A stretch of 64,000 nucleotides of DNA from Candidatus Magasanikiibacteriota bacterium. GTDB lineage: Bacteria > Patescibacteriota > Patescibacteriia > Magasanikbacterales > GWA2-37-8. Positions 3,601 to 45,712 of this stretch are shown in pieces. Both the position numbers and the translations under genes were made by a program. Location of the stretch: the NCBI GenBank assembly GCA_963802255.1, contig CAWDHY010000001.1:28728-92727 (forward strand), given 5' to 3'. How positions within the stretch are numbered: position 1 is the stretch's first letter; the number at the start of each line of letters is the position of its first letter. The notes beneath the pieces were generated by a model. That model worked only from the letters and a program-made list of their open reading frames with translations, made no database searches and was not told the DNA's origin.

Positions 3601-3743
3601 TGCCTACCTGCGTAATACAACACCTAACACGGCATACACGGCTACGGTTTGCTCCGCAAACCTTCGCCCATATTGCACGGGTGTAGCCTGTCGGCTATTA
3701 TACACCCACGCAACATCGTATACGCCGAAACGTTATACGAAAT

Positions 3744-4901
3744 ATGATTATGAAAGCAAAATATCCTAATTTTATAATTTTAACATTCGCTATTTTAGGA
3801 ATGATTTTTTTGAGTGGCTGTGGGTTGCAAGATGTCAAGCAGGAGTCGGTACCGGAAGAAAATTTTCCAAAAATCGCAAGCTGGCTTTCGAAAAAGGATG
3901 AAATAATCGCCGGCAAACATCCTTATGACTTGATTATGACGGCCTGGTTTACTCCCGAAGAAGCGGAAAAAATTAAATTAGCAAATCCCAGCGCAAAAAT
4001 ATTAGCAGGACTATCCGCCAATTGGGTTTGGGATAATCGCGACTGGATGACTTTTTTGATAACAGCGGCAAATTATGGAAAAAAAGAGCCGATAGAAATG
4101 ACCGAGGAAATGTATTTACATAAGCTTAATGGTGAAAGATGCGCTTTCGGTTGGGCGTCTCCGGAGTGGGGGCACGAAGAAATTTATGCCATGGACCCGA
4201 GAAATGATAGGTGGATTGAGCTGATAACTTCTTTTTATAAAAACGTTTTGGACCAGGCGACACACGATGGTATCATTGTGGACATGGTGACGGAAAAACA
4301 ATGGTGGTGTCCCGAAGCGATCAGCAATGAAGAATGGCTCAACGCTACGAAAAACATTTTTTCAAAAATAGAAAAAATTAATACCAAGGACAAATTGGTT
4401 ATTATGAATGCCGGTAAGGACATCCAGGATATCGATGAATTTGGCGAATATTTTGACGGGTATCTGATGGAGAATTTCATGGGCAACCAGATGAAAACGA
4501 AGTTCGAAGATGGTTTGGCGGCGGCCGACAGCAAATACATTGTTATTTATGGAGTTGATACTGATGATACCGGCCAGAAAGATTTAAAAAAAATGCGCCT
4601 TGGCTTAACATTGAGCTTGCTAAATGATAATACTTATTTTACCTATGATTTTGGACCAAGAGACCACGGACAAGCATGGTGGTTTGATGAGTATAATGCT
4701 GAACTTGGGAGCGCTCTTGGAAAATATTATAAGAAGGACAACGCATACTGGAGGGAATTTGAAAAAGGAATTGTTGTGAGCTCTCCTTACAATGATATTG
4801 TTGTTTCATTTGATAAAGAATATGTTGATGCGACAACAAAAGTTAAAGCTAAAATATTTAATATTGGAAAAGAAGACGGGAGGATATTTTTAAAAAATTA
4901 A
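3744..4901 (+). CDS. Lipoprotein, putative TIM-barrel glycoside-hydrolase-like protein
   Basis: Lipobox LSGC at residues 23-26. A GH114-like assignment is only a weak, by-eye family resemblance. Confidence 0.5.
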   Translation: MIMKAKYPNFIILTFAILGMIFLSGCGLQDVKQESVPEENFPKIASWLSKKDEIIAGKHPYDLIMTAWFTPEEAEKIKLANPSAKILAGLSANWVWDNRDWMTFLITAANYGKKEPIEMTEEMYLHKLNGERCAFGWASPEWGHEEIYAMDPRNDRWIELITSFYKNVLDQATHDGIIVDMVTEKQWWCPEAISNEEWLNATKNIFSKIEKINTKDKLVIMNAGKDIQDIDEFGEYFDGYLMENFMGNQMKTKFEDGLAAADSKYIVIYGVDTDDTGQKDLKKMRLGLTLSLLNDNTYFTYDFGPRDHGQAWWFDEYNAELGSALGKYYKKDNAYWREFEKGIVVSSPYNDIVVSFDKEYVDATTKVKAKIFNIGKEDGRIFLKN

Positions 4902-4938
4902 TAAAGAAATAAAAAAATAATTAAATTAACTTAAAAAT

Positions 4939-5553
4939 ATGATAAAATTTCCCAAAGCTTCGCCTACAGTGCGCGCGGTTGCAGCTGTCATATTAGTCGC
5001 GGCTGCCGGTACAGTTTATCTGGCAAGAACCAAGCCGTTGATGTTTCAGTCTGTAACAGAAAAAATTGAAAGTATCATTACGCCCAAACCGCCGATAGGT
5101 AATCTGACACCGGCACGTGATCTGCGAGGTACTTGGAAGTCATCATTATCCGGCAAAGGCCTACAGTTATACGGCAGACACACCACTTACGGCTCAATTA
5201 CTGACATGTATGAAGACGGCGATATTGAACTGATTATTAATAACGTTCAAAATAATATTGCAGTCGGCACCATGCGCTATATCAATCTTTGCGGCTGGGG
5301 AGAAACCACTGTCACCATTCCTGGCGCAGAAGGAGTCATTAATGTGCCCAAAACTTGCGTGGCCGATACCGGTCCACAAGAAATCAGTATTCAAGTAAGC
5401 TCAAGCGCTCTGGATTTTGGAACAATTTCTGTTGACGGCATCACGGCCACAATGCAAGGCAATTTTACAACCGATATTATAAGTGGCACAATGACGGTAA
5501 CCATGCCGGGTGGAGTATTAAAAGGCACTTTTAATTTGTCGCGGCAAAGATAA
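4939..5553 (+). CDS. Hypothetical signal-anchored secreted protein
   Basis: N-terminal hydrophobic segment AVAAVILVAAAGTVYLA. Gly/Thr-rich beta-type C-terminus. Confidence 0.5.
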   Translation: MIKFPKASPTVRAVAAVILVAAAGTVYLARTKPLMFQSVTEKIESIITPKPPIGNLTPARDLRGTWKSSLSGKGLQLYGRHTTYGSITDMYEDGDIELIINNVQNNIAVGTMRYINLCGWGETTVTIPGAEGVINVPKTCVADTGPQEISIQVSSSALDFGTISVDGITATMQGNFTTDIISGTMTVTMPGGVLKGTFNLSRQR

Positions 5554-5611: not shown

Positions 5612-7735
5612 ATGACTGGCATGCTAATAAAAAAATTTAATCAGATCTCCAAAATTGATACTAAGATAGCCGGAGGCAAAGGCGCTTCACTCGGAGAGAT
5701 GACGCAGGCAAATATTTCTATACCGGGAGGTTTTGTAATTCTTTCCAATGTATTTGACGTCTTTATTGAAAAAACGGATCTAAATATTGAAATCGACGCG
5801 GTTTTGGACACAGTTGATATCAATAAAGTCCATACTGTCGAGAATGCGTCTGAGAGAATTAAAGCAATGATTCTTTCTAAAGAAATTCCAAAAAATATAG
5901 AAACGAAAATATTAAAAAATTTTAAAAAATTGGGTTCAAAATTTGTAGCGGTCCGGTCTTCGGCCACGGCAGAGGACTCTATTACCGCCGCATGGGCAGG
6001 ACAATTAGAAAGCTACCTCAACACGACAGGCAAAACACTTTTGGAAAATGTTAAGAAATGCTGGTCCTCGCTATTTTCTCCCAGGGCCATATTTTACAGA
6101 TTCAATAATAAGTTAGACAAGAAAAAAATTTCGGTTGCAGTCGTCATCCAAAAAATGGTTCAAGCGAAAAAATCAGGTATTGCTTTTTCGGTCCATCCCA
6201 TTACAGAGGATAAAAACCAGATAATTATTGAGGCTGGCTTTGGTTTGGGGGAAGCAATTGTTTCCGGGTCAATAACTCCGGATAGTTATGTTATTGATAA
6301 ACAAGGGCTTAAAATAATTGATATTAATGTAAATGAGCAAAAAAAAGCATTATACAAAAAAGCCGGTGGTGGAAATGAGTGGAAAAAACTGGGAGAAAAA
6401 GGTAAAAAACAAGTTTTATCTGGAAAAGAGATTGTTGAGTTGTCAAAACTAATCATGAAAATTGAAAAGCTTTACGGTTTTCCGTGTGATATTGAATGGG
6501 CAAAAGAAAAAAATCATTTTTATATTACTCAAAGCCGGCCGATTACCACATTGCCTAATACAACTAAAAGAAAACAAACAATTTTGAACTATATAAAAGG
6601 CCAAAAATGGTTTTTTGGCGTAAGAGCCGACGAGTCTTTATTATTTTATTCAGCAAAACAGGACGGATGCAATGAATACATAAAAAAAGAATACGGAGCC
6701 GAGTTTGCGGAAACTTTGCTCATCCCCTTGCTAAAAAACCGCCCAATCAGAGTTTTTAATCTTTCGCAGGCAAAAAAATTCCATGAATTCTCCAATAAAA
6801 AAATTCTAAAAAATCCGCGCATTATATTAACTTATATCGCTAAAAATAATCGCCTATACCAAGAAATGGAATCTAACGGAAAAAGATTAGCGACGGCAAT
6901 AAAAAACTGCGATTATCACAAAAGTGCGGGGTTGTTTAATAAAATATGTAACCTTTATAAGGTTGCCGGCGCGCAGTATATTATTATTTTTTCTTTAGGC
7001 CTTAAATTGACTGAAAATATAAATAACCTGAAAAATATTGGAGGGATTGTACAAAAGCATGATGAATGGAGGAACAGCGTGGCATTTAAAGAAGAAGAGC
7101 TGGGTGAAAATCTTTTTTATTTTTTTAAATTTTTATCAGAACAAAGGAAGCTAGAGATTGCGCCTCATCATTTTATGAAATTATTAACTTTAAATGAGAT
7201 TAATAATTGGTTAAACGAGAAGTTAACGGACGCGGAAATAAGAGGCATCATAAAATCAAGAAAACAACATGGTTTTATATATTTAAATTTAAATAATGAA
7301 CGCCGTGAGATTATTGACAGTTCTACGGAAATTAAAAAAATTCAAAAATATTTTTTTAAATTGGATAGAGCGGAGAAAAAATCAAATAACCCCAATATCA
7401 TTAAAGGCCAAACTGCTTGCGGTTCAAATGAAATAATAAAAGGAAAAGTTATTGTTATTAAAGATAAATCTGAATTAAAAAACAAAAGCCGTTTAATAAA
7501 GGGTAAAATTTTAGTAGCTATCCAGACTACGCCTCACTTTATTCCTTATATGAAAAATGCCAAAGCGATTATCACCGATGAAGGCGGATTGACCTGCCAT
7601 GCGGCAATTGTGGCCAGAGAATTTAATAAACCTTGTATAATCGGAACCGGTACTGCAACGCACATATTAAAAGACGGTGATGCGGTTGAATTGGAAATGA
7701 ACGATGGCACCATAAAAATTATTATAAAAAAATAA
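5612..7735 (+). CDS. PEP-utilising enzyme family protein, PpsA/rifampicin-phosphotransferase-like (N-terminal ATP-grasp, C-terminal phosphohistidine mobile domain, no PEP-binding TIM barrel)
   Basis: The N-terminus KIAGGKGASLGEM is the pyruvate phosphate dikinase PEP/pyruvate-binding-type ATP-grasp. The C-terminus GGLTCHAAIVAREFNKPCIIGTG is the PEP-utilisers mobile domain with its catalytic His. 707 aa. Confidence 0.8.
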   Translation: MTGMLIKKFNQISKIDTKIAGGKGASLGEMTQANISIPGGFVILSNVFDVFIEKTDLNIEIDAVLDTVDINKVHTVENASERIKAMILSKEIPKNIETKILKNFKKLGSKFVAVRSSATAEDSITAAWAGQLESYLNTTGKTLLENVKKCWSSLFSPRAIFYRFNNKLDKKKISVAVVIQKMVQAKKSGIAFSVHPITEDKNQIIIEAGFGLGEAIVSGSITPDSYVIDKQGLKIIDINVNEQKKALYKKAGGGNEWKKLGEKGKKQVLSGKEIVELSKLIMKIEKLYGFPCDIEWAKEKNHFYITQSRPITTLPNTTKRKQTILNYIKGQKWFFGVRADESLLFYSAKQDGCNEYIKKEYGAEFAETLLIPLLKNRPIRVFNLSQAKKFHEFSNKKILKNPRIILTYIAKNNRLYQEMESNGKRLATAIKNCDYHKSAGLFNKICNLYKVAGAQYIIIFSLGLKLTENINNLKNIGGIVQKHDEWRNSVAFKEEELGENLFYFFKFLSEQRKLEIAPHHFMKLLTLNEINNWLNEKLTDAEIRGIIKSRKQHGFIYLNLNNERREIIDSSTEIKKIQKYFFKLDRAEKKSNNPNIIKGQTACGSNEIIKGKVIVIKDKSELKNKSRLIKGKILVAIQTTPHFIPYMKNAKAIITDEGGLTCHAAIVAREFNKPCIIGTGTATHILKDGDAVELEMNDGTIKIIIKK

Positions 7736-28288: not shown

Positions 28289-28933
28289 TTATTTTTTTAT
28301 CAGTCTATTGTACAAAAAATAAGAATATACAAACGGAATAAACGCGGCGGATAACACAGTTACCATTACAATCCAGATGGCAATATCCGTGAAAAAAATC
28401 CCGAGCAGAGAAATTATGCCCGCTGCCTTAAATAATTTAGCACCCAAAACATGCGTTTTTTTCCATACTTCTTCACTACTTAGTGTCCACGGCGTACGAA
28501 TGCCAATAGAAAAATTCATCTGCGCTTTCCCTATCATCACTCCGACATAATAAAATAGAGCCGCAAATGCCGGTATCAAAAATTTGACCATATCAAATCC
28601 TCCGCCGATATTCCACCATAATGTCAGGACGTAGAGATACAACAGAAAAATAAAAAGTAAAATAATAAAGTTGTCAAAATACTTGCGAAACTTTTCGATA
28701 TTTTCTTTTTTAGGGTCAATGCGTGGCACCACTAACAACATGATATACATTGCCATAGATATTATCGGCATTAAAAAAACACCCCAAAACTTCGACATAT
28801 AGCCGTTTACTTCACCCGCGGAATTCCAGTGGCTCGCCATTTTTTCCGGCAGAACCGGGTAAAAAATCAGACCGATAATGACGGACATCAGCACAACTAA
28901 CAAAGATACGGCTTCGCTCTTATTTATTTTCAT
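28289..28933 (-). CDS. SdpI/YhfL-family membrane protein (immunity-protein-like)
   Basis: GIRTPWTLSSEEVWKKTH is the SdpI family signature. Multi-TM. The start is taken at MKINKSEAV to avoid overlapping the upstream GT4. Confidence 0.6.
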   Translation of the reverse strand: MKINKSEAVSLLVVLMSVIIGLIFYPVLPEKMASHWNSAGEVNGYMSKFWGVFLMPIISMAMYIMLLVVPRIDPKKENIEKFRKYFDNFIILLFIFLLYLYVLTLWWNIGGGFDMVKFLIPAFAALFYYVGVMIGKAQMNFSIGIRTPWTLSSEEVWKKTHVLGAKLFKAAGIISLLGIFFTDIAIWIVMVTVLSAAFIPFVYSYFLYNRLIKK

Positions 28934-28955
28934 ACCTAACAAAAAATTGAACAAA

Positions 28956-30107
28956 TTATTTTTTATAGACAGCCTCAACATCATCAACAATGTCCTCCCA
29001 ATTAAAATTCTTTTTTATGAAGGTTAACGCTTTTTCACCATGGCGCTTTACTGATTCCGGAAAATCCAAAAGATAAATAAGCATCTCATACAGATCATTT
29101 ACATTCTTTGATTCAAAAGTAAATCCCGCGTGATCAATACTTTCAAGATTCTCAGGTATATTACTCACGAGCACGCACCTGCCATAGCTCATGGCCTCAA
29201 GAATAGTAATTGAGAGCCCTTCAGCCTCCGAGGGGTGAACATACAAATACGCATTGGCAAATAATTGGGCCAGTGATTCCCCCTGCTGAAAACCGACAAA
29301 AATAATATTGGCCGAATCGGCGGCAATTTTCTTTAAATATTCAAGATAATCATCACTATAACTCGGCGCCCCGACTATCACCAATTTACGAAGTCTCCCG
29401 CCCGGCCAATTTTTCTGATTTGTACCATGCATTTTTTCCAATTTCTTATATGCCTCAATGAGATAATGTATTCCTTTGTGCTTAATCAGGCGGGCGACAG
29501 TCAAAATATAACTATCCTTTGAAATTCCAAATTGGCGGATTTTATCATCACGCGCTTCACCAGTCTTATGAAGGTCAGTGCCATTTGGAACATAAATAAC
29601 TTCCTTGTTAAACATATGCCGGCAATACTGCTGGATGGATTTTGATACCGCGATGCAGGCGTGTGGAAAATGAACCGCGGCCCACTCTCCAAAGCCCAAA
29701 TACCACCTGGCAAAAGCGCCCCATTTTTTATGAAAACGGTCGATACTATGGAATGTTACGACTACCTTTGCGCGCGGCTTAAATATTCGGGGAATCCAGG
29801 CCAAAGTTGACGGTCCGACTCCGTGATAATGAATAACGTCAACTTTTTGAAATAAAACATTAATGGTAGAAAAAAATACATGCGTAATTGTATCAAAATT
29901 TTTTGTCGGGATAGATGGAGTATAAATAATTTTAACTCCTTTATACACAGCATCTTTTTTTTCAACCAAATAACCCCGCGAATACGCAATAACTTCATGG
30001 CCTTTAGCTACAAGCCGCGTCGCAAGCTCTTCTACGTGACGCTCCACTCCGCCGCCCTTCCCGCCGATAAATGGCACTGTTTTTTGTCCGATGATGGCGA
30101 TTTTCAT
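28956..30107 (-). CDS. Glycosyltransferase family 4
   Basis: N-terminus MKIAIIGQKTVPFIGGKGGGVERHV. C-terminal EAEGLSITILEAMSYGRCVLVSNIPEN. Confidence 0.8.
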   Translation of the reverse strand: MKIAIIGQKTVPFIGGKGGGVERHVEELATRLVAKGHEVIAYSRGYLVEKKDAVYKGVKIIYTPSIPTKNFDTITHVFFSTINVLFQKVDVIHYHGVGPSTLAWIPRIFKPRAKVVVTFHSIDRFHKKWGAFARWYLGFGEWAAVHFPHACIAVSKSIQQYCRHMFNKEVIYVPNGTDLHKTGEARDDKIRQFGISKDSYILTVARLIKHKGIHYLIEAYKKLEKMHGTNQKNWPGGRLRKLVIVGAPSYSDDYLEYLKKIAADSANIIFVGFQQGESLAQLFANAYLYVHPSEAEGLSITILEAMSYGRCVLVSNIPENLESIDHAGFTFESKNVNDLYEMLIYLLDFPESVKRHGEKALTFIKKNFNWEDIVDDVEAVYKK

Positions 30108-30141
30108 AATCCTACTAAGTAAATTATTCTTCCATATATAT

Positions 30142-30447
30142 TTAAACTATCATTTGTGCAAAAAGCGCTATCAAAGTTAAAACAATAAGCCAAAGAACGG
30201 TCCGAAAAAACATTTTTATTGCGTCTTTTTTTTGTCCCTCCAAATACATAATTACCGGCCTTCCCAAGATCAAAGCACCGACAATTGCGGCCGATAAAAC
30301 AAATAACAGCAGAAAAGAAACCGGACCGAGCAAATTGTCCATTTTGCCAAAAATTGCCTCCGCGTTCTGCATAATAAACGCGACCACTATTGTGTAGCCT
30401 GCGACGCCGAACGCATTTACAAATGCCGCAAATTTTTGATTTTTCAT
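30142..30447 (-). CDS. Hypothetical small membrane protein
   Basis: Three hydrophobic segments. 101 aa. Confidence 0.45.
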   Translation of the reverse strand: MKNQKFAAFVNAFGVAGYTIVVAFIMQNAEAIFGKMDNLLGPVSFLLLFVLSAAIVGALILGRPVIMYLEGQKKDAIKMFFRTVLWLIVLTLIALFAQMIV

Positions 30448-30456
30448 AGAATAAAA

Positions 30457-30933
30457 TTAAATATTTAATCTCCAAATAAAAAAATTTAAGACGGCGGCAA
30501 AGCTAACCCAAAGTATATATGGAATTAACAACCAGGCAGATACCCGGCTAATCCGGTAAAAAATTACAATCGTGACCAGAATAGTCATCCAAAGACATAT
30601 TATGGCTACAAACGCGGCAAATGGCGAATGATAACCGAAAAATAATACCGACCAAAGAATATTTAGCAACAATTGAGCCGCAAAAATAATTAAGGCAATT
30701 TTAACATCGCTCCGATTAATACCTTTATTCCAAACCAGAAATACTGATATGCCCATTATTAAAAATAATATGGTCCAAACCGGTCCAAATAGCCAATTAG
30801 GCGGATTGAATGATGGCTTAGCAAGCGATGCGTACCATGTTGGAATCGAAGGAGTGGTAAATAAAGAACCGACTATGCCGGCGCTTTCACAAATAACGAT
30901 GGATACAATCAAACGTAATATGTTTGCTAACAT
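30457..30933 (-). CDS. tspO: TspO/MBR tryptophan-rich sensory protein
   Basis: PSFNPPNWLFGPVWTILFLIMG is the canonical TspO motif. Confidence 0.85.
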   Translation of the reverse strand: MLANILRLIVSIVICESAGIVGSLFTTPSIPTWYASLAKPSFNPPNWLFGPVWTILFLIMGISVFLVWNKGINRSDVKIALIIFAAQLLLNILWSVLFFGYHSPFAAFVAIICLWMTILVTIVIFYRISRVSAWLLIPYILWVSFAAVLNFFIWRLNI

Positions 30934-30950
30934 AAAAAATTTATTAATAA

Positions 30951-31844
30951 TTAATTAGGAGTCACAGCTGCGAGCACTACGGCACAAACGACTGCAAGAA
31001 TGAGCCCCGCATACTGGTGTTTTTTTAACTTCTCTTTATTAAATACAAGGCCCAACAATGCGGCCAGAGCAATATAACTTTCGCTGATGCTGATCGCAAT
31101 TGTTATGGGTATATATAGGGTGCTATAGGAATACGAAATCCAGGCGGCATTATCCAAAAGACCGACACCAATAATTAACGACTTATCCCTGTGCCAATCT
31201 CTAAAAATTTCTTTTATTTTTGATTGTGACGCAAGATAAATAAAACTGATTAATGCCAAAAATAAACTGGTAAACCAATTAATAAGCAGCGGGTTGGTTT
31301 CTCTTGAGCCTACGCCAAAAAGAAAATTTGTCGCACCCATGCATAAGGTGCCAAAAAATGCCAGCCAAACCCCTTTTTCTGCCTTGATATTTTTTAAATG
31401 ACTGAAAGATTTAACTGATACCAAGAAAATTCCAATAATCAATAAGACGATAAACACGAGTTGTAACCATGACAACCTTTCCCCAATAATAACAAAGGAT
31501 AAAATGGCGGTAACCGCCACTTCAAAAGCCATGATCGGTTCAACTACGCTGATTTTCCCGTCTTTTAACGCCTGAAAATTTAACAAGGCCGCTACTAATA
31601 TTGTAATACTGGCCAAAAATAAAATAAAAAGGGCGGGAAAATTAATGATCAAACCTGCAAGATCCTTGTATATTAGGGGGAATAATACAACAGACGCAAT
31701 AAAAGTTATAAAGAACAAAGCGATCCATTTTCCAAATTCACGACTGCTTTTTTGGATTAAAAAATCCCCTACCCCCCAACAAATTAATGCGATAAACGCG
31801 AATAAAATACCCATATTGGTATATTTAGGATATAACAAAAACAC
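30951..31844 (-). CDS. EamA/DMT-family transporter
   Basis: Ten TM helices with duplicated EamA halves. Confidence 0.8.
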   Translation of the reverse strand: MFLLYPKYTNMGILFAFIALICWGVGDFLIQKSSREFGKWIALFFITFIASVVLFPLIYKDLAGLIINFPALFILFLASITILVAALLNFQALKDGKISVVEPIMAFEVAVTAILSFVIIGERLSWLQLVFIVLLIIGIFLVSVKSFSHLKNIKAEKGVWLAFFGTLCMGATNFLFGVGSRETNPLLINWFTSLFLALISFIYLASQSKIKEIFRDWHRDKSLIIGVGLLDNAAWISYSYSTLYIPITIAISISESYIALAALLGLVFNKEKLKKHQYAGLILAVVCAVVLAAVTPN

Positions 31845-31974
31845 CCTGTTGTATAGGGTGCTCGCCGGTAGGTTGACGCAAATATTATAGTTTCTTTATG
31901 ATATAAAAAATCCGCCATCTTGTCGAGGGCGGAGAGCTTGTTGGGCTTGTAATAATTAATCCCAGTATTACGGG

Positions 31975-33666
31975 CTACTCAGCCGAGACTAGATGTTTGA
32001 CTGTCCCGTGCGTTGCGCGGACTTCGACCACATCACCATCATGTATCCGCTCAGTACCATTTTCTGTGCCAATTATGCAAGGTATTCCAAACTCACGGGC
32101 AATAATACCGGCCGGACAAGTTACGCCGCCTTCGTTTGTCACGATGCCGGCCGCTTTCTTGAAAATGGGAATAAAGGCCGGCCATGTCATACCGCCAGTA
32201 ACGACAATATTACCGGGTTTAAATTTAAGAAAATCTTTTTCATCCAAAATAACTTTAGCCGCTCCTTTGGCATAACCAGGGCAAGCCGTTTGACCATAAA
32301 TCAAATCCTCCGAACTTGCTACCTCCCCAGTTGTAGCGTCCAATTCGCGTTTTAAGGAATCAGCCTCCACGTCGTGAAGTAATTTATAATCACCTTTTTC
32401 AAGAATGACCAACAAGCCGCTGGCGGCACGTTTCTCCAACGTATCACGACCGATCAGGCCACGCCATGCTAAATTTACTTCGTCAAATGAGAGGCTCCCT
32501 AACAATTTTTTAGGAATGCCAGATTTAACGGACAACACTTCCAAAACACCATCCAAAATATGAAATCCCATAAGATTTATTTTGCGTCGCTCTTCCCGCC
32601 ACTCGGCTAAACGGCAAAAGAAATCCAGGGGATTCTGCTTCAGCCCGTGCTTTTTTAAAATTTGTTTTTTTTGAGCCTCTTGAGCTGACGGATAATCAGA
32701 CAACCGACGGCATATGTCGCGATATATCTGCTTCCAATTCGTCACATAGCGTTCCAATTCCTTGGCGGTTTCCTGCAACGAAATATGGGCGATTTTCCCG
32801 TAATTAGATTGGTAAAAATCAAATTGGCGTTGATATCGCAACACCTCTTTTGTTTGCAGAAATTCAACAATGTGCGCACGCATTTTCCTGACTGAGATTT
32901 TTTTGCCGGACATTTTTTCGGCCATTCTCAGCAGCATCAACTGACGTTCGTTCGGCAAGGTCAAGGAATTTGGCGCTGAAAGCACGGCCACTTCTGATTT
33001 ATCTAAACCTTGCTGCTGTGCGATCTCGTGCATGCGCGAAAAATCAAAACCAGCATCAAAAGCGTCAATAAAAATACTTGACTGCCAAAATCGGTCATAA
33101 GCACTTCTCACTGATCGGAAGTGCTCTTCAAATTCCGCGGAATCCTGATTTAAAGATGAGCGACTATAACTATTCCAGTACAAATTCTCCATTTCTTTAC
33201 CGGCATAAACAAATTTTTCATGTAGCGCTTCCGACTCATTTTGGTCTTCGTAACGACGATAGCAATAGGCGGCAATGTCATTGGCGTTACTGTAATTAAT
33301 ATAAAAATAGAAATACGATTGTTTCAGATACAGATAGGCGCGGCCAAAATTTCGGCCAAACGATGACACTAACATATTGTTAAAGGCAAATGCAGCCGGC
33401 CAAAGATTGATTAGCTCCCCGGCACCCTCCTGACGATACAGCCGTTCAGCTAACGGTTTTTGCGTGAGCTCTTCGACTTCAATTATGTCGGTAATATTCA
33501 GGCCATAGGTACGGCAAAGCCGGCTAAGCGTATCAAATCGAATACCGTTGACTTTACCATAGTAAAGCGCGGCTACGGAATTGCGATTTAAGCCGGTTTC
33601 TTTGGCCACATCGGCAATTTTTTTTCCGCTTTTCTTCAAAAAGTCCGAAAATTTGTTTATTATCAT
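31975..33666 (-). CDS. HTH (XRE-type) DNA-binding protein fused to a PEP-utilisers mobile domain whose catalytic His is replaced by Pro
   Basis: N-terminal HTH (IADVAKETGLNRNSVAALYYGK). C-terminal GGVTCPAGIIAREFGIPCIIGTENG, where the paralogue at 5612..7735 has GGLTCHAAIVAREFNKPCIIGTG. Shared upstream block (I/L)xGQTAC(G/P)G. Confidence 0.75.
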   Translation of the reverse strand: MIINKFSDFLKKSGKKIADVAKETGLNRNSVAALYYGKVNGIRFDTLSRLCRTYGLNITDIIEVEELTQKPLAERLYRQEGAGELINLWPAAFAFNNMLVSSFGRNFGRAYLYLKQSYFYFYINYSNANDIAAYCYRRYEDQNESEALHEKFVYAGKEMENLYWNSYSRSSLNQDSAEFEEHFRSVRSAYDRFWQSSIFIDAFDAGFDFSRMHEIAQQQGLDKSEVAVLSAPNSLTLPNERQLMLLRMAEKMSGKKISVRKMRAHIVEFLQTKEVLRYQRQFDFYQSNYGKIAHISLQETAKELERYVTNWKQIYRDICRRLSDYPSAQEAQKKQILKKHGLKQNPLDFFCRLAEWREERRKINLMGFHILDGVLEVLSVKSGIPKKLLGSLSFDEVNLAWRGLIGRDTLEKRAASGLLVILEKGDYKLLHDVEADSLKRELDATTGEVASSEDLIYGQTACPGYAKGAAKVILDEKDFLKFKPGNIVVTGGMTWPAFIPIFKKAAGIVTNEGGVTCPAGIIAREFGIPCIIGTENGTERIHDGDVVEVRATHGTVKHLVSAE

Positions 33667-33685: not shown

Positions 33686-33771
33686 ACTAGTATACTATGC
33701 AATACTGTGCATATCATTGAAATTCTCTATATATTGTACCATATTGCTATATTTTTGCATAGTATACTAGC
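33686..33771. promoter_or_regulatory. Inverted-repeat operator pair in the divergent promoter region
   Basis: ACTAGTATACTATGCA (33686..33701) against TGCATAGTATACTAGC (33756..33771), 15/16 reverse-complement match, 54 bp apart. Confidence 0.5.
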
Positions 33772-33852
33772 TAATACCCATTGACAAAATCGATTTTTTT
33801 GGTATATTTGTCCTACAGACTAATTGTCTGTCCTTTTAAAAGGAGGAAACAA

Positions 33853-35433
33853 GTGAGTTGCCAAAAGAACAACCGTCGCATCGTCCTTATCAAGCCGCCA
33901 CTGTATACCTGCGCAACGTTTGCCCCCATCAGGTCATCTCAGCCGCTGGGAATCTGGCGACTGGCCAGTTATCTCGAAGCCAAGGGTTACGAAGCTAAAA
34001 TCATTGACGGCGTCATTGAAGGCTGGGATCGCAAGGTTCTCATGCCGGCGGAAGCTCTTTACTCGCATCGCGAACATCTTAGTGAGAAAGCCAGAGCGCT
34101 TCGCTCTATGAATCCGTCTGATTTTCTTCGCAAGTATCCAGTTGCGGATGCGGAGGGTAGAATTAACCGGGCATTGGTCCGAACTGGATTATCGTGCGAT
34201 ACGATTGTGGAGCAAATCCGCGATTTTAATCCGGGCTGGATCGGCATCTCGATTATTGCTACCTGCGAGCACCGTGGCGCCATGGAGTTGGTCAAGCGTT
34301 TGCGGCGTGAGTTTCCGGAGAGCAAAATTGTGGCTGGAGGGCAGCATGCAACTGATATGGCCGAAACTGTGCTGCGTGATTCCGAAAGCTGTATCGATTT
34401 CGTGGTAAAAGGCAACGGCGAGTTCGTTCTCGAAAAATTGCTCTCTGGACAGAATTGTGACCACGGATTGGCTTGGTTGGAAAACGGTGTCTTGGTGGAG
34501 CGACCTGACGCGCCGCTCACCCCGATTCATATTCTACCGCCATTCAACCCGGAACTTCTGGCCCACATAGCATATCCGTTGCCGGCGACCCACTCCTACG
34601 GTACTCAGGGTCGCAAATACACTGATTGGATGTTTTCTTCGGGATGCCACAGACACTGTGACTTCTGCCGCGAAGGCTCGATAAATAGCGGCTATCGCCA
34701 CTTAACGCTTGAACAGGTAAATGCACAGCTCCGGCTCTTCAAAGCGTATGGTTACGAAGAAATTATCTTTCAGGACGACAGCTTGCTCGGCGGACCCAAC
34801 AACGACGGGGCAGATTTCTTCCTGGAAGTGGCCAAGCTTATGAAAAAGTACGGCTTGAATTGGCACGACAACGGGGGCGTGGAGTTCGAGAGATTGAATG
34901 AGCGCGTCGTTGCTGACATCATTCGTCTCAACCATGAACCTGGCATGGGGAATTGCACCGCACTCTACATTCCTTTTAACCCTCGATATATCGGCGACAA
35001 TCGATCGGCCGAGAGGAATATGCGGACAAGAAATAACAAACTCGACCTATTGAAACGTCTGAAGGAGAACGATATATACACGTTCACTTCCTGGATCTGG
35101 GGCCACGTTGACCAGGGAATGGAAGACATGGAGGCTAATACGGTTTGTTACGAGAAACTCCTTCAAGAGGGGGTCGTCGACCAGGTTGTGATATTCGGTT
35201 TATCATATTTGCCGAGGACTAAGGACTGGGAAAGTTATCGCCACCACATTGTCGACTTGCAAGATTGGGAGGGTTACTCAATCTTTGTTCCACACGCTAA
35301 AACGACAAAAGCTAGCTTTAACGATGTCAACATGGCGGTCCTCGACGCCTACCGGCGTCTGAACGTATTGCAAAAACATGTTGAACCTTGGGCCTACGGC
35401 TTCCCACTCGTCGTTCCCGACGATTGGCGCTAA
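33853..35433 (+). CDS. B12-binding (class B) radical SAM enzyme
   Basis: N-terminal cobalamin-binding Rossmann region (IVLIKPP...GISIIAT...IVAGGQHAT). Radical SAM CHRHCDFC. GTG start at 33853 sits 6 nt after AAAAGGAGG. GC looks clearly above the window background by eye. Confidence 0.8.
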   Translation: MSCQKNNRRIVLIKPPLYTCATFAPIRSSQPLGIWRLASYLEAKGYEAKIIDGVIEGWDRKVLMPAEALYSHREHLSEKARALRSMNPSDFLRKYPVADAEGRINRALVRTGLSCDTIVEQIRDFNPGWIGISIIATCEHRGAMELVKRLRREFPESKIVAGGQHATDMAETVLRDSESCIDFVVKGNGEFVLEKLLSGQNCDHGLAWLENGVLVERPDAPLTPIHILPPFNPELLAHIAYPLPATHSYGTQGRKYTDWMFSSGCHRHCDFCREGSINSGYRHLTLEQVNAQLRLFKAYGYEEIIFQDDSLLGGPNNDGADFFLEVAKLMKKYGLNWHDNGGVEFERLNERVVADIIRLNHEPGMGNCTALYIPFNPRYIGDNRSAERNMRTRNNKLDLLKRLKENDIYTFTSWIWGHVDQGMEDMEANTVCYEKLLQEGVVDQVVIFGLSYLPRTKDWESYRHHIVDLQDWEGYSIFVPHAKTTKASFNDVNMAVLDAYRRLNVLQKHVEPWAYGFPLVVPDDWR

Positions 35434-35508: not shown

Positions 35509-35569
35509 ATTATCTCGATTGTTTTCTATTTAAACAACAACACCATATTGGGGTGTTGTTATTTAAATG

Positions 35570-35654
35570 CGGAAGGGGTGGGATTCGAACCCACGGTCCC
35601 TTGCGGGACACGGCTTTTCGAGAGCCGCACTTTCGACCACTCAGACACCCTTCC
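35570..35654 (-). tRNA. tRNA-Ser (anticodon CGA)
   Basis: The reverse complement folds as a class-II tRNA. Anticodon loop CTCGAAA. Long variable arm. T-loop GGTTCGAATCC. Confidence 0.85.
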
Positions 35655-35673
35655 AGATGATGCCGCCAGTCAA

Positions 35674-35800
35674 AATGCGGAGAGGGTGGGATTTACCCCT
35701 TCACTCCGTTCTCGGGGCATAAACTTCTCATCCCATCTCCATCCATATTTTTCTATCTACGCCAAAAAGCGTGGATAGAAAATGCGGAGAGGGTGGGATT
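35674..35800. repeat. 21-bp direct repeat duplicating the 3' end of tRNA-Ser(TGA)
   Basis: aaatgcggagagggtgggatt at 35674..35694 and again at 35780..35800. The second copy overlaps the 3' end of the tRNA gene. Confidence 0.75.
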
Positions 35801-35871
35801 CGAACCCACGGTCCACTTTCATGGACAACAGTTTTCAAGACTGTCGCTTTCGACCGCTCAGCCACCTCTCC
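35785..35871 (-). tRNA. tRNA-Ser (anticodon TGA)
   Basis: The reverse complement is GGAGAGGTGGCTGAGCGGTCGAAAGCG...CTTGAAA...GGTTCGAATCCCACCCTCTCCG. Confidence 0.85.
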
Positions 35872-40977: not shown

Positions 40978-41050
40978 GGGCCGATAGCTTAGCTGGTAGA
41001 GCGCCGCGTTTGCAACGCGGAGGTCCGGGGTTCGAATCCCCGTCGGTCCA
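40978..41050 (+). tRNA. tRNA-Ala (anticodon TGC)
   Basis: GGGCCGATAGCTTAGCTGGTAGAGCG-CCGCG-TTTGCAA-CGCGG...GGTTCGAATCCCCGTCGGTCCA, with the G3:U70 identity pair. Confidence 0.9.
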
Positions 41051-41198
41051 CGAGCAATGCAACAGTTTGCATTGCGAGCGGGGATGAGAACGGCGGAGCG
41101 ATGTCGCGCGAGTTTGCTGAAGAGCGCGACCGCGAGCCGGTGGCCAGACCGCCGAGCCGGAAGACTAGGCGAGTCGAGGCCGAATCCCCGTCGGTCCA
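41033..41198. repeat. 18-bp direct repeat of the tRNA-Ala 3' end bracketing a 130-bp GC-rich spacer
   Basis: cgaatccccgtcggtcca at 41033..41050 and 41181..41198. The spacer carries two strong hairpins (GCAATGCAA/TTGCATTGC and GTCGCGC/GCGCGAC). Confidence 0.8.
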
Positions 41199-41251
41199 CA
41201 ACGCTAAGCGTTGTGATGGAGGCGATGAACGTTCCACATTATAAATAAAAT

Positions 41252-41323
41252 GCCGAGGTAGCTCAGTGGTAGAGCGAAGGACTGAAAATCCTTGCGTCGT
41301 GAGTCCGATCCTCACCCTCGGCA
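41252..41323 (+). tRNA. tRNA-Phe (anticodon GAA)
   Basis: GCCGAGGTAGCTCAGTGGTAGAGCG-AAGGA-CTGAAAA-TCCTT...CCCTCGGCA. Confidence 0.9.
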
Positions 41324-41404
41324 CAAACGTTATGCGTTGTAGTTGTGTCGCGTAAGCGACACATAAAATTTAGCACCACCGCAGTGACGGTGGTGTTTTA
41401 CCAC

Positions 41405-41478
<74 letters not shown>

Positions 41479-41536
41479 CGAAATATTGATTGAATCATAT
41501 CAATCAATATTTTTAAAACCAACAAAAGGAGGAAAA

Positions 41537-42682: not shown

Positions 42683-42741
42683 AACGCCGTAACGGTATTT
42701 GGCGCGATTCTTTTCCGCCGAAACCGCTACGGCGTTTTTTT
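42683..42741 (+). terminator. Intrinsic terminator closing the GC-rich island
   Basis: AACGCCGTA ... TACGGCGTT-TTTTTT (9-bp stem). Confidence 0.6.
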
Positions 42742-45712
42742 ATCCGCGTTTCCAAATACCGGAGGCAAAAGATATTATTTTTCTTGCGGCACCAATTATT
42801 ACACTCTTTTTTGCACGCCCAAAAAAACCAAGCAAGAGGGCGGTTAACCCGCCGGCTGTAGCGGTAAAATATTTTTCCGCCACTTCTTTTGAATTGTTTT
42901 GCGTCACAATCAATTCATTTTTTATAGTCTCCTCTGATAAACCAGTTACTATAATATCCGAATTACCGCGTGGCCAAACCTGAATTTCATTTCCGGACAA
43001 TTCAACTATTCCGGTTATTTCGACTTTTTCTCCTTCAGCAAATGCATTTTTATCAATGGCCGCTCCTTTTTTAAAATACACTTTTATTTCTCCGGCGCCA
43101 TTGTCTAAATACATATAACTACTTTTAATTTCTGTAATTTCACCGCTAAAATTTACCAGCGACCCGGCATGTTCTTCGTTTATTTCGTCCAGCTCAAGAA
43201 TGTTTGCCTTAATTTGCTTATTAGTTTCTAAGATATCGACCGCCTGCTGATTTTTCATTTTTACTCTTTTGATACCGCTTGCTTCTGAAATAATACCTGA
43301 TATCTCTACGGAGTCACCAAGCGCTAATCCGGGAAAATCTTTGTTATACTGATAAATTTGTATTCCGCTTATATTGTCATATATATAGAAAATTTGGCTG
43401 CCAAAAGTTGCCGGTAAGGCAACGACAATGCCACGAATAATAACACCTGCATCGGCGTTTTCTTGCCGCGCTTCCTGAATTGACAGCGGACGATAATATA
43501 CTGCCGTTGAATTATTTGTACTTTTTTTTGCAGCCAATACTCCAATAGCCGAAATATCCGGTAAAAATATATTTTCTTTTCCGGGCGAGGGTGATTCAAC
43601 CCAGCGCCACTCATCAGCAAACGCATAACTCATGCCCTCAACGCTTTTACCATACTTCACCAAATCCACCACACTGTTGTCGCGGTTAATTAGCTCGACA
43701 CGACCGCCAGTGTTATCTAGAACTAATCCCGTAGCTGCACGAAAAAATACCAGCTGTGACTGAGGATTAATAATTGTATTATCCGGCAGAACAAAATCCT
43801 TATCTTTTACTCTTAGCGCCCAGCCAGATAAATTTACAGAAATTTCAGATACATTGCATAATTCAATAAATTCTTTTGTATCAACACCGGGCGGATTGGG
43901 GAAAATTTCACATACCACGATTCCGGTCTCTCCAAGCGCCAACCCTGAGCCAACCGTAATACTGATTTCTTTCTGCCCAAAACTGCCAAGCGTGCTTGAA
44001 GCAGAAACTATAACAATGTAAGTTCCTGAAGAAGCGAAAGAATGCGCCAATTCTCCGCCTTCAGCCACATTGCCATCGCCAAAATCCCATCTAAACGATA
44101 ACATACCGCCCCGTTCGTCAGCAGAATCATCAGCGTTAAACACAACCATCTCCCCGATTTCAGCTGTCGAAGGCGCAATGATTTTCCAGACAATTCCAGA
44201 ATCGGCCATACTGAAAACATTTTCCTGTCCCGGCGTAGGTTGTGCCGTCCACACAAATGTGCCTGATGCAGTCCTGGCGAAACTTTCCGCTTCCGGAGCA
44301 CTATCATATGCAATTTTATCAATTACTTCTCCTGCCGGTGAAATTAACACGGCTTCTTCTTTGCTTGTATTGTTGAACGAAATATTTGTCGCCGAGCGTA
44401 ACCAATACACTATGCTCTGAGCCGGGAGCATGCCGGACAAGGAATAAGTTTTCACCGCATCGCCAATTTTCCAACCATTTAAATCCACCGGTTCATCCTC
44501 TAAATTTTTTATTTCAATAAATTCATCAGAAGTGTCAGACCCGGCCGGATTAGGAAATATTTCATTTATTACTACCCGGGCGGAGAAAGTTGAACTGGTA
44601 GCTATTGAAGTCGTCGCTGTTATAATTTGCTCTGTTACAGTATCTTGGGCGCTTCCATTCCCCCCGCTGGATACTGGCGGCGGGGCAGTAATCATATTTG
44701 CCGCACCCGGTGTAAGACTGGTGGTAATCACCCAGTCGCTGTCACTATCTGTGTCTAACCCATCAACCCGCCTCGCTAATGATTGCCCTTTCTTAGCCGA
44801 CAAATCGGAAGAATAATCAATTCTATCGACGATCTGCCCATCCGGATTTTTTAAAATCACACTATCTCCGCTATTATTTAAAAAACTGGAAGTCAAAAGA
44901 TCCAAATACATCCAGCCGACTGCAGAAATATAACCCGCTACCGGTTTGCACCCGGTTTCTCTGGAGTCGCAAACTACACCACCGTCCATATCAAGCGAAC
45001 TGGTTCCAGGATTAAAAAGTTCGACCCACTCACTTCCCGTTTGCGGGTCAGAAACAAATTCATTTATCCTAATCATCCCCCACAACGTCGTCGTAGATAT
45101 AACCGGAGTTGTTGTAGGGGTCGGTGTTGTCGTCGGTGTTGGAGTTGTTGTCGGCGAGATAACGCCGCTTGAAGTGGCAAAGACACTATTTATTTGCCCG
45201 ATTGTGTTGCCCGTTACATGCTCTCTCCAATTTGTATTATCATAAATAGCTTCGTACGGATTAACACGCTCCAATGAAAAACTTGGCGCGGCAATATAGC
45301 TAAATTGTTCAACAAAATTTCCATCCGCATCTTTCAGTCCTATTTCCTCCCCACTTTCACTTAAACTACCCCATGATGAATCAAAAATTGACCCTGAAAA
45401 AGCTGGATAATCCACAGAAAAAAGATCACTGTTCTGGCAAATTGCCGCATACTCTCCCGGATCAATCATGCTATCTGTGCTACTTACTGTTAAGCCATGA
45501 TTCGTGCTATCTTCCCAAAATTTCCATGCTCCTAAATCTACCGGGTCAGAACCCTTATTCCATATTTCAATCCATTCATGGCCGCTGGCTTCATACGCGC
45601 CAATTTCATTTATTATAATATCGCTATTCGCCGAAAATGCGACTGCCGCACAAACAAAAAAACCGACAATAGCCAGCGCCGATGCCGGAAAAAATTCCCT
45701 CCTCATAAGCAA
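42740..45712 (-). CDS. Large secreted surface protein with four lamin-tail domains (LTD), a PKD domain and a Thr/Pro linker
   Basis: Signal peptide. LTD repeats (INEI...EWIEIWNKG..., RINEFVSDPQTGSEWVELFNPG..., VINEIFPNPAGSDTSDEFIEIKN..., VVCEIFPNPPGVDTKEFIELCN...). PKD (FRWDFGDGN). TTPTPTTTPTPTTTP linker. C-terminal hydrophobic tail. Confidence 0.8.
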   Translation of the reverse strand: MLMRREFFPASALAIVGFFVCAAVAFSANSDIIINEIGAYEASGHEWIEIWNKGSDPVDLGAWKFWEDSTNHGLTVSSTDSMIDPGEYAAICQNSDLFSVDYPAFSGSIFDSSWGSLSESGEEIGLKDADGNFVEQFSYIAAPSFSLERVNPYEAIYDNTNWREHVTGNTIGQINSVFATSSGVISPTTTPTPTTTPTPTTTPVISTTTLWGMIRINEFVSDPQTGSEWVELFNPGTSSLDMDGGVVCDSRETGCKPVAGYISAVGWMYLDLLTSSFLNNSGDSVILKNPDGQIVDRIDYSSDLSAKKGQSLARRVDGLDTDSDSDWVITTSLTPGAANMITAPPPVSSGGNGSAQDTVTEQIITATTSIATSSTFSARVVINEIFPNPAGSDTSDEFIEIKNLEDEPVDLNGWKIGDAVKTYSLSGMLPAQSIVYWLRSATNISFNNTSKEEAVLISPAGEVIDKIAYDSAPEAESFARTASGTFVWTAQPTPGQENVFSMADSGIVWKIIAPSTAEIGEMVVFNADDSADERGGMLSFRWDFGDGNVAEGGELAHSFASSGTYIVIVSASSTLGSFGQKEISITVGSGLALGETGIVVCEIFPNPPGVDTKEFIELCNVSEISVNLSGWALRVKDKDFVLPDNTIINPQSQLVFFRAATGLVLDNTGGRVELINRDNSVVDLVKYGKSVEGMSYAFADEWRWVESPSPGKENIFLPDISAIGVLAAKKSTNNSTAVYYRPLSIQEARQENADAGVIIRGIVVALPATFGSQIFYIYDNISGIQIYQYNKDFPGLALGDSVEISGIISEASGIKRVKMKNQQAVDILETNKQIKANILELDEINEEHAGSLVNFSGEITEIKSSYMYLDNGAGEIKVYFKKGAAIDKNAFAEGEKVEITGIVELSGNEIQVWPRGNSDIIVTGLSEETIKNELIVTQNNSKEVAEKYFTATAGGLTALLLGFFGRAKKSVIIGAARKIISFASGIWKRG

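Follow-up and report, generated by a model that had tools for sequence, protein, structure and literature searches.

Why would a bacterium join a DNA-binding domain to a phosphohistidine domain that has lost its histidine? The question is raised by a minus-strand gene at 31975..33666 of the 64-kb stretch of DNA analyzed here (the window), which comes from Candidatus Magasanikbacteria (Patescibacteria), a tiny groundwater bacterium. The host RpoB is 95% identical to that of a MAG so named, further genes are of the bacterial housekeeping kind, and the contig measures 628 kb. An initial annotation of the window took the gene product for a pseudo-enzyme regulator, i.e., an XRE-type helix-turn-helix (HTH) fused to a mobile, or swivel, PEP-utilisers domain with Pro at the phospho-His position. 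Our results support this in part: the observation was confirmed and the core idea of a pseudo-enzyme regulator holds for the window protein, and a central domain of ~375 amino acids (aa), probably the sensor, had been omitted. With moderate confidence, we read the protein as a ligand-sensing autoregulator of a new family, which has lost phosphotransfer and controls both its own gene and a divergent gene for a B12-binding radical SAM protein.

An HTH protein with a catalytically dead swivel domain

The regulator gene and its parts are arranged as follows.

31975..33666, minus strand: regulator gene (HTH, rifampin-binding-domain [RIF-BD]-like and swivel domains), a 563-aa open reading frame (ORF) with an ATG start and full-length homologues
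33463..33666, minus strand: DNA-binding HTH of Cro/C1 (XRE) type, residues 1-68, by HTH_26 match; model pLDDT 86-94
32317..33444, minus strand: central (MID) domain, mostly helical, probable ligand sensor, residues 75-450, by fold matches and kept motifs
31987..32310, minus strand: PEP-utilizers swivel phosphohistidine domain, catalytically dead, residues 453-560, by Pfam and PDB profile matches
32113..32115, minus strand: Pro518 codon CCG at the phospho-accepting His position of GGxT[S/C]H, by motif alignment

Both terminal domains were matched by Pfam well above the cut-offs, HTH_26 at residues 7-65 (51.3 bits, cut-off 22, E 1.4e-13) and PEP-utilizers (PF00391) at residues 483-554 (67.1 bits, cut-off 23.1, E 1e-18), bearing out the annotated architecture and the identity of the C-terminal region as a PEP-utilisers domain. 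Among solved sequences, the HTH was closest to that of the SaPI2 Stl XRE repressor (E 5.9e-9 with the family profile), and the swivel domain matched PEP synthase in a PDB profile search (E 1e-33); matches to the NCBIfam models for PEP synthase, RPH, PigC and the PRK08296 group were confined to residues ~450-559. The Pfam scan of the regulator found neither a phosphoenolpyruvate (PEP)/pyruvate-binding TIM-barrel (PF02896) nor an ATP-grasp (PF01326) in cis, the two domains expected of a PEP synthase or PPDK. Residues 75-450 had no Pfam match. They contain YRQEG (77-81), FIDAFDAGFD (199-208) and WREERR (356-361), so that the motifs YxQEG, FIDxFDxGxD and WRExRK, invariant in the family, are all present. 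The GC content of the gene is 44%, vs 42% for the whole window.

The swivel motif of the regulator reads NEGGVTCPAGIIAREFGIPCIIGT. The phospho-accepting His of GGxT[S/C]HAA is missing from it and Pro518 stands in its place (GGVTC-P-AGIIAREFGIPCIIGT, with TCPAG where the enzymes have TCHAA); apart from His518 and an Ala520Gly change, the motif is nearly unchanged (NEGGVTC-P-AG-IIAREFGIPCIIGT). A sequencing error at the His codon, which the annotation had named as a possible refutation, is excluded by a relative from an independent assembly (locus L001, Logan SRR23086375) whose product is 94% identical to the regulator. The two genes differ at 84 synonymous and 35 nonsynonymous sites (dS 0.27), and L001 nonetheless has the identical CCG codon at position 518; since CCG is in addition two substitutions away from each His codon (CAT/CAC), the change from His to Pro is real. 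The ratio of nonsynonymous to synonymous rates (dN/dS) between the two was 0.10 for the whole gene; by domain, it was 0.04 (HTH), 0.11 (central) and 0.11 (swivel, at dS 0.26), and these low values indicate that the regulator gene is functional and that even its dead swivel domain is constrained.

In a structural model made with AlphaFold2 (AF2), Pro518 is the first residue of the helix 518-526, a place in a helix where proline is well tolerated. Substitution of this His by Gln or Ala abolishes activity in HpeH and RPH (PMC12167813), and the swivel His is essential in dikinase homologues (PMC12167813, PMC4844700). With the phospho-accepting residue replaced by Pro518, a motif that is directly observed, it follows from the published mutagenesis of these homologues that the regulator should neither accept nor pass on a phosphoryl group, in agreement with the annotation, which had held acceptance to be impossible.

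The probable sensor half resembles RPH and the H subunits of split dikinases

The AF2 model, computed from a 47-sequence family alignment (pLDDT 90.5, pTM 0.82), was compared with the PDB by Foldseek. The six best matches were all Listeria RPH structures (E 2e-12 to 8e-11, 576-638 aligned columns), with 5fbu/5fbt/5fbs at the top (E 2e-12 to 7e-12, 576-633 columns, TMq 0.46-0.50), and the alignments spanned both the central and the swivel domain of the regulator. PPDK, pyruvate kinase and Enzyme I ranked well below RPH and aligned through the swivel domain only, the PPDK phosphoryl carrier domain 2fm4 being matched with a TMt of 0.64, in line with a beta/beta/alpha fold of the swivel domain. 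An earlier AF2 model from 5 sequences gave the same ranking. When PDB sequences were searched with a hidden Markov model (HMM) of the family, the central domain had no match and the HTH alone was found, so the link of the central domain to solved structures rests on the fold comparison. R357-E358..R361 of the regulator stand 161 residues before Pro518; in RPH, the residues R666-E667..K670, essential for the second transfer, stand 159 residues before H825 (PMC4844700). From this spacing and the global Foldseek match, rather than from a residue-level superposition, we infer that WRExR[KR] may correspond to RPH block 9, the second-transfer site; YRQEG is the candidate counterpart of the block-1 Gln. 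As modeled, the central domain of ~375 aa is a probable ligand sensor with the fold of the RPH rifampin-binding domain.

The enzymes HpeHI, CreHI and PpsAB are divided between two subunits, of which one has the RIF-BD-like and swivel domains and the other the ATP-grasp (PMC12167813), and because the confident AF2 model matches RPH best, the sensor half of the regulator resembles such an H subunit of HpeH/PpsA type. HTH-less relatives of ~470 aa contain the same two domains and lie beside stand-alone ATP-grasp genes. Homology and fold together thus show that an HTH has been added to the N terminus of a scaffold resembling the H subunit of a two-component small-molecule dikinase. The annotation had proposed that the ATP-grasp was swapped for the HTH; this does not hold, since the HTH-less relatives are already separate subunits.

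Like HpeH (of Rhodococcus HpeHI), CreH and PpsA (phenylphosphate synthase), the regulator lacks a cis ATP-grasp and has a C-terminal swivel domain behind an RPH-type substrate-binding domain (PMC12167813), and its relatives have the partner ATP-grasp as a separate ~312-aa gene in the same operon. Unlike them, it has an N-terminal HTH, Pro for the catalytic His and no adjacent ATP-grasp gene; moreover, those enzymes come from aromatic-degrading bacteria and the regulator from Patescibacteria, and the likeness to HpeH and PpsA was read from fold and domain order. RPH itself (PDB 5FBS/5FBT/5FBU; PMC4844700), the best structural match of the whole model, likewise places a central domain before a C-terminal swivel domain and has an Arg-Glu-x-x-Lys/Arg motif ~160 residues ahead of the His position. 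It differs in having an N-terminal cis ATP-grasp where the regulator has its HTH, in having His825 where the regulator has Pro518, and in sharing only 15-17% sequence identity with it.

Transcription factors that combine an HTH with an enzyme-derived sensor include MocR/GabR (aminotransferase fold), the ROK repressors Mlc/NagC (sugar-kinase fold) and RpiR (SIS). In these, as here, the HTH sits on a paralogue of a metabolic enzyme whose ligand site is kept while catalysis is lost or unneeded; in contrast, their sensor folds are wholly unlike that of the regulator, and most members of the present family retain the catalytic His. To our knowledge, no one-component regulator of this HTH/enzyme-derived kind uses a dikinase substrate-binding and swivel module. 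Swivel-type or PPDK-derived proteins in regulatory use are exemplified by the C-terminal extra domain of Geobacillus/Staphylococcus pyruvate kinase (PDB 2E28, 3T05), structures that were among the Foldseek matches of the model, and by VadK of Mycobacterium tuberculosis, which was recruited for regulation rather than central metabolism (PMC13400623). Neither has a fused DNA-binding domain. VadK, furthermore, keeps and uses its His and is reported to exert no transcriptional regulation of the methylcitrate cycle (PMC13400623). Our literature searches found no description of an HTH/central/swivel regulator, and the names of family proteins in databases are automatic only, e.g., "PEP-utilizing enzyme" or "helix-turn-helix domain-containing protein." The regulator family is undescribed; it follows a known principle, an HTH with an enzyme-derived sensor, in a fold not previously reported in transcription factors.

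A probable palindromic operator between the regulator and a divergent radical SAM gene

The annotation had pointed to inverted repeats around 33686..33771. These are real and likely constitute the operator: the arms of a 16-nt inverted repeat (33687-33702 and 33755-33770) are 100% complementary, and each contains the 10-bp palindrome TAGTATACTA. Both copies lie within the 186-nt region between the regulator start and the divergent radical SAM gene, and no further good copy was found in the window.

33687..33702, no strand assigned: predicted proximal operator in the regulator leader, 31 nt before the ATG, TAGTATACTA at 33688-33697 in the arm CTAGTATACTATGCAA
33755..33770, no strand assigned: predicted distal operator, TAGTATACTA at 33760-33769 in the arm TTGCATAGTATACTAG, 72 bp from the proximal site
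33781..33808, plus strand: sigma-70-like promoter of the radical SAM gene, TTGACA, 16 nt, TGgTATATT (11/12 matches)
33853..35433, plus strand: divergent B12-binding radical SAM gene, probable target, 526 aa, by Pfam B12-binding and Radical_SAM

The spacing of 72 bp between paired TAGTATACTA sites recurs in the window and in L001, L002 and L003, with a similar distance to the start codon; the L002 and L003 proteins are only 45-46% identical to the regulator, yet the operator spacing is the same. With up to one mismatch allowed, TAGTATACTA occurred 13 times in 5.8 kb upstream of family genes (200 nt upstream of each of 31 genes, including the His-bearing L005, L010, L011, L012, L013 and L023) vs 4 times in the remaining 457 kb, a 255-fold enrichment (Fisher p 4e-22). 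The enrichment extends over the family, His-bearing members included, and gives strong comparative support to the conserved HTH (ETGLNRN[TS]) as the predicted reader of the palindrome.

The -35 box of the radical SAM promoter, a box that is kept in L001-L003, lies 11 nt beyond the end of the distal site. The start of the radical SAM gene was placed at GTG 33853, after AGGAGG, partly on the basis of the 526-aa product in L001. Its orthologues stand beside other Pro-type regulators, divergently in L001 (95% identity) and L021 (36%, 511 aa) and convergently in L008 (40%), and the gene was absent from every His-bearing locus examined. No NCBIfam family matched its product above the cut-off; the best, a P-methyltransferase, scored 73 bits vs a required 575.

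Most family members keep the histidine

A word-indexed search recovered four full-length relatives of the regulator and an exhaustive profile search many more; the census given here covers the best 150 profile matches, parsed with our own HMMs for the HTH, central (MID) and swivel (MOB) domains. It comprised 34 representative clusters (50% identity) of HTH-MID-MOB architecture and 488-589 aa, HTH-less MID-MOB proteins (17 of about 412-534 aa, one of 341 aa and one of 777 aa), and many proteins with 2-6 swivel domains. As judged by genome titles, the family is found in Patescibacteria (Uhr-, Falkow-, Magasanik-, Peri- and Saccharibacteria, Parcubacteria) and in one DPANN archaeon.

The catalytic His was present in 25 of the 34 HTH-bearing clusters and absent from the other 9, in which it is replaced by Pro (P0001, the window clade; P0054; P0072), Ile (P0002, with P0003), Leu (P0060), Glu (P0061, P0098, P0109) or Ser (P0052). 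All 259 swivel domains of HTH-free proteins had it (Fisher p 1.4e-9). His loss is therefore specific to the DNA-binding form and a minority state within it. These counts qualify the annotation's remark that no transcription factor family built on a dead swivel domain had been described: our literature searches indeed found none, but the family as a whole is not defined by a dead domain. Recurrence of the Pro form together with an HTH, which the annotation had proposed to check, was found in the three Pro-type clusters.

A neighbor-joining tree set the clade of the window, L002 and L003 apart from the clade of L008 and L021 and from a group with degenerate motifs. A single origin of all His-less forms was rejected on this split, taken from a tree that is star-like and unreliable. 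Death of the swivel domain is a derived condition with more than one origin, the His having been lost at least twice. Swivel motifs are degenerate in some His-less relatives, reading VDDDRDGLAAVFAREHG in P0060 and ESADKNSELEKIVH in P0098.

In two further loci (L024:10001-12326 and L025:10001-12284), the regulator is split into an HTH-MID protein of 429-443 aa and an overlapping 335-aa ORF, and in the split-off swivel domain Phe or Ala replaces the His. Either a frameshift or a true division into two proteins would account for this.

An intact paralogous kinase and the gene clusters of His-bearing relatives

A second protein of the window contains the same C-terminal domain in intact form.

5612..7735, plus strand: paralogous intact kinase of 707 aa, with a PPDK_N ATP-grasp, a short central region and a swivel domain reading TCHAA

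Pfam matched PPDK_N (312.6 bits) and PEP-utilizers in this protein, in accordance with its annotation as a kinase with ATP-grasp and catalytic His. The swivel domains of regulator and kinase are 43% identical over 116 aa (E 4e-23). The homology claimed for the C-terminal ~100 aa of the two proteins therefore stands, while its extent was underestimated: with family profiles it covers ~220 aa, regulator residues 335-558 vs kinase residues 491-706 (hhalign probability 99.8). No third copy of ATP-grasp/swivel genes was found in the window. The kinase ATP-grasp shares 53-58% identity with ATP-grasp genes, stand-alone or fused, that cluster with family regulators elsewhere, in several of these genomes directly beside them, and the whole 707-aa protein shares 39% over 709 aa with the fused ATP-grasp-MOB protein of L013. 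By sequence, then, the kinase is evidently a member of the regulator/dikinase system.

Where the His is kept, the regulator typically opens a cluster of genes on one strand, separated by 6-34 nt, in which it is followed by a stand-alone ATP-grasp, an HD protein and between 1 and 10 paralogues that lack the HTH. Six clusters illustrate this.

L006: regulator, then HD, a 312-aa ATP-grasp and MID-MOB
L007: regulator, then ATP-grasp
L013: regulator, then HD, a MOB protein and a fused ATP-grasp-MOB
L022: regulator, then a fused ATP-grasp-MOB and four MOB proteins
L018: regulator, then six MID-MOB genes and HD
L005: 10 or more MID-MOB genes with the regulator in their midst, and HD

A partner ATP-grasp is encoded alongside the His-bearing regulators of L006, L007, L012, L013, L015 and L022. 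None was found within 10 kb of the regulator in the window, L001 or L021, and within the available sequence, which gave full 10-kb flanks for the window and L021, neighbors of the cluster type were absent around the Pro- and Ile-type regulators (window, L001, L002, L003, L008 and L021).

Tandem HTH-less MID-MOB (HpeH-like) genes, all with the His, number at least 10 in L005 (1-15545) and 6 in L018 (11682-19501), and an archaeal contig (L004:3-5304) has 4 in tandem. Giant ORFs of up to 2648 aa with 2-6 swivel domains also occur (P0017, P0018 and P0032 among the array proteins). We found nothing on such arrays in the literature; their composition suggests a diversified battery of small-molecule dikinase subunits served by one common ATP-grasp. 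The HD-domain protein of ~200 aa is regular in the regulator/dikinase clusters (L005:15542-16129, L006:2613-3227, L009:13150-13746, L013:11702-12295 and L018:14672-15274) and might hydrolyze the phosphorylated product. It has no homologue in the window.

How the regulator may work, and the alternatives

As a one-component transcription regulator, the protein would bind both TAGTATACTA sites through its XRE-type HTH, probably as one dimer per site, and would most likely repress its own gene and the radical SAM gene, possibly by bridging the two sites. The sensor half is a complete copy of the substrate-binding and swivel subunit of a split RPH-like dikinase (HpeH/CreH/PpsA type). A small molecule, perhaps a dikinase-class substrate or a phosphorylated product, might bind in the cleft of the central domain beneath the docked dead swivel domain and so alter how the HTH pair engages the operators; the RIF-BD-like cleft is predicted to keep its phosphate-site residues and might bind the small molecule or its phosphorylated form, with the dead swivel domain serving as a fixed lid or an interaction surface. 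The window regulator is a derived form, which lost its operon linkage and its His and has the radical SAM gene as its neighbor.

Several observations weigh against this reading. In the distant Pro-type clade (L008/L021), the WRE motifs are degraded and no convincing TAGTATACTA site was found, which makes the link between the two Pro-type groups uncertain. The radical SAM gene is not beside the Ile-type regulators of L002 and L003, both of which lie on short contigs. The HMM alignment to solved structures reaches only as far as regulator residue 378, and the equivalence with block 9 comes from spacing and the global Foldseek match. The promoter search gave no clear promoter for the regulator itself, and the distal site, centered ~50 nt upstream of the likely radical SAM start, would, on its predicted position, also suit an activator.

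The main rival departs from the kinase: the dead swivel domain would dock on the ATP-grasp of the protein at 5612..7735, and DNA binding would report the state of the kinase, or the regulator would titrate it as a decoy. Such a functional link, raised by the annotation, gains support from the 53-58% identity of this ATP-grasp to ATP-grasp subunits in regulator clusters elsewhere, and a swivel motif under purifying selection that has changed only at His518 and Ala520 would suit a docking surface; because the subunits of two-component dikinases form transient complexes only (PMC12167813), an exchange of partners with the kinase is also plausible. However, the two genes are 26 kb apart, there is no TAGTATACTA operator near the kinase gene, the conserved neighbor of the regulator is the radical SAM gene and no kinase, and a pure decoy would not need the ligand-site motifs that the central domain has kept. 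We consider this account unlikely.

Less likely still are two others. The C-terminal domains could be a dimerization or structural scaffold for the HTH of a constitutive, signal-independent repressor, as the heavily degenerate swivel motifs of P0060 and P0098 and the split-off swivel domain of L024/L025 might suggest, since they show that function can be lost within the family; the window clade, however, keeps every central and swivel signature bar the His, and with dN/dS of ~0.1 in three domains, the constraint exceeds what a scaffold needs, making this improbable for the window protein. That the Pro codon marks a sequencing or assembly error or a decaying gene deserves hardly any credence. 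The origin of the window from a metagenome-assembled genome calls for general caution, but the same CCG occurs in L001 across 84 synonymous differences, the frame of 563 aa is intact, dN/dS is 0.10, and related clades have Ile or Pro at the same site, so this explanation is effectively refuted.

A ligand-sensing autoregulator that has lost phosphotransfer thus remains our preferred reading of the window protein. For the family, the retention of the catalytic His by most members suggests regulation by phosphotransfer and not by binding alone. A new signaling device can tentatively be imagined, in which the ATP-grasp of the operon phosphorylates the swivel His of a His-bearing regulator and the phosphate then goes to the bound substrate; the window protein would be a version of it that has been rewired and made blind to phosphorylation, which keeps the site for ligand or phospho-ligand and controls a B12-dependent radical SAM enzyme. 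It is conceivable, though doubtful, that in such a device the phosphorylation state, and with it DNA binding, reads ATP-grasp activity against substrate on behalf of up to 10 or more paralogous dikinase subunits in CPR bacteria and DPANN archaea.

Regulation in Patescibacteria and DPANN, organisms of ultra-small size with reduced genomes, is almost unexplored, and sequence by itself suffices here to define an entire regulator family, together with the operator TAGTATACTA, the probable sensor fold and the operons under its control. The family ties transcription control to the poorly understood split RPH-like dikinases, whose genes occur in tandem arrays, and His-bearing regulators inside enzyme operons vs His-less ones outside them offer a natural experiment in the passage from enzyme subunit to pure sensor. 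It also raises the testable hypothesis of a transcription factor governed by its swivel phosphohistidine domain; none of the components, be it the window protein, the operator DNA or the 707-aa kinase, is too large for expression and testing in vitro.

Other genes around the regulator

The Ile-type regulators of L002 and L003 have a different divergent gene, common to both loci, cut by the contig ends (L002:3-164 and L003:3-338, minus strand) and unrelated to the radical SAM gene; its product begins MIDPRQIVELINRTDIAEEDVA, and no family was identified for it. In L003, genes for CbiZ and CobD/CbiB (cobinamide salvage; 3627-5395) lie 1.5-3 kb from the regulator. A corrinoid connection of the Pro- and Ile-type regulators is possible, its CbiZ/CobD side coming from this one locus. 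GC content is atypical in two genes of the window (42% overall), at 51% (GC3 59%) in the radical SAM gene and 34% (GC3 32%) in the paralogous kinase gene, and either or both may have been gained horizontally.

Downstream of the regulator lies an EamA gene, separated from it by a hairpin.

31839..31863, minus strand: terminator-like hairpin, followed by a T tail, in the gap that separates the regulator stop from the EamA gene (consensus match only)

An EamA gene stands downstream of the regulator in the window, L001 and L002 and is 4 kb away in L003. We rejected it as a co-transcribed or regulated target, leaving it as a weak lead: identity between clades is 29-32%, the hairpin intervenes and no operator lies ahead of it. 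A match to TAGTATACTA with 2 mismatches is present at 31665, inside the EamA gene. Because of the hairpin, EamA and the membrane-protein genes downstream are probably separate from the regulator. They form a membrane/envelope run on the minus strand (28289-31844) of EamA, TspO/MBR, a 101-123-aa ORF, a GT4 glycosyltransferase and a DUF1648/SdpI-like protein, syntenic with L001, which has in addition a 120-aa ORF, a cytochrome-b5-domain gene and a flavodoxin-like gene.

Farther along the window, 42740-45712 (minus strand) encodes a 990-aa protein, probably a surface protein, with four lamin-tail domains and a PKD domain. Two small groups of tRNA genes lie in 35569-35871 and 40978-41479; the minus strand encodes Ser-CGA and Ser-TGA, the plus strand Ala-TGC, Phe-GAA and Pro-TGG.

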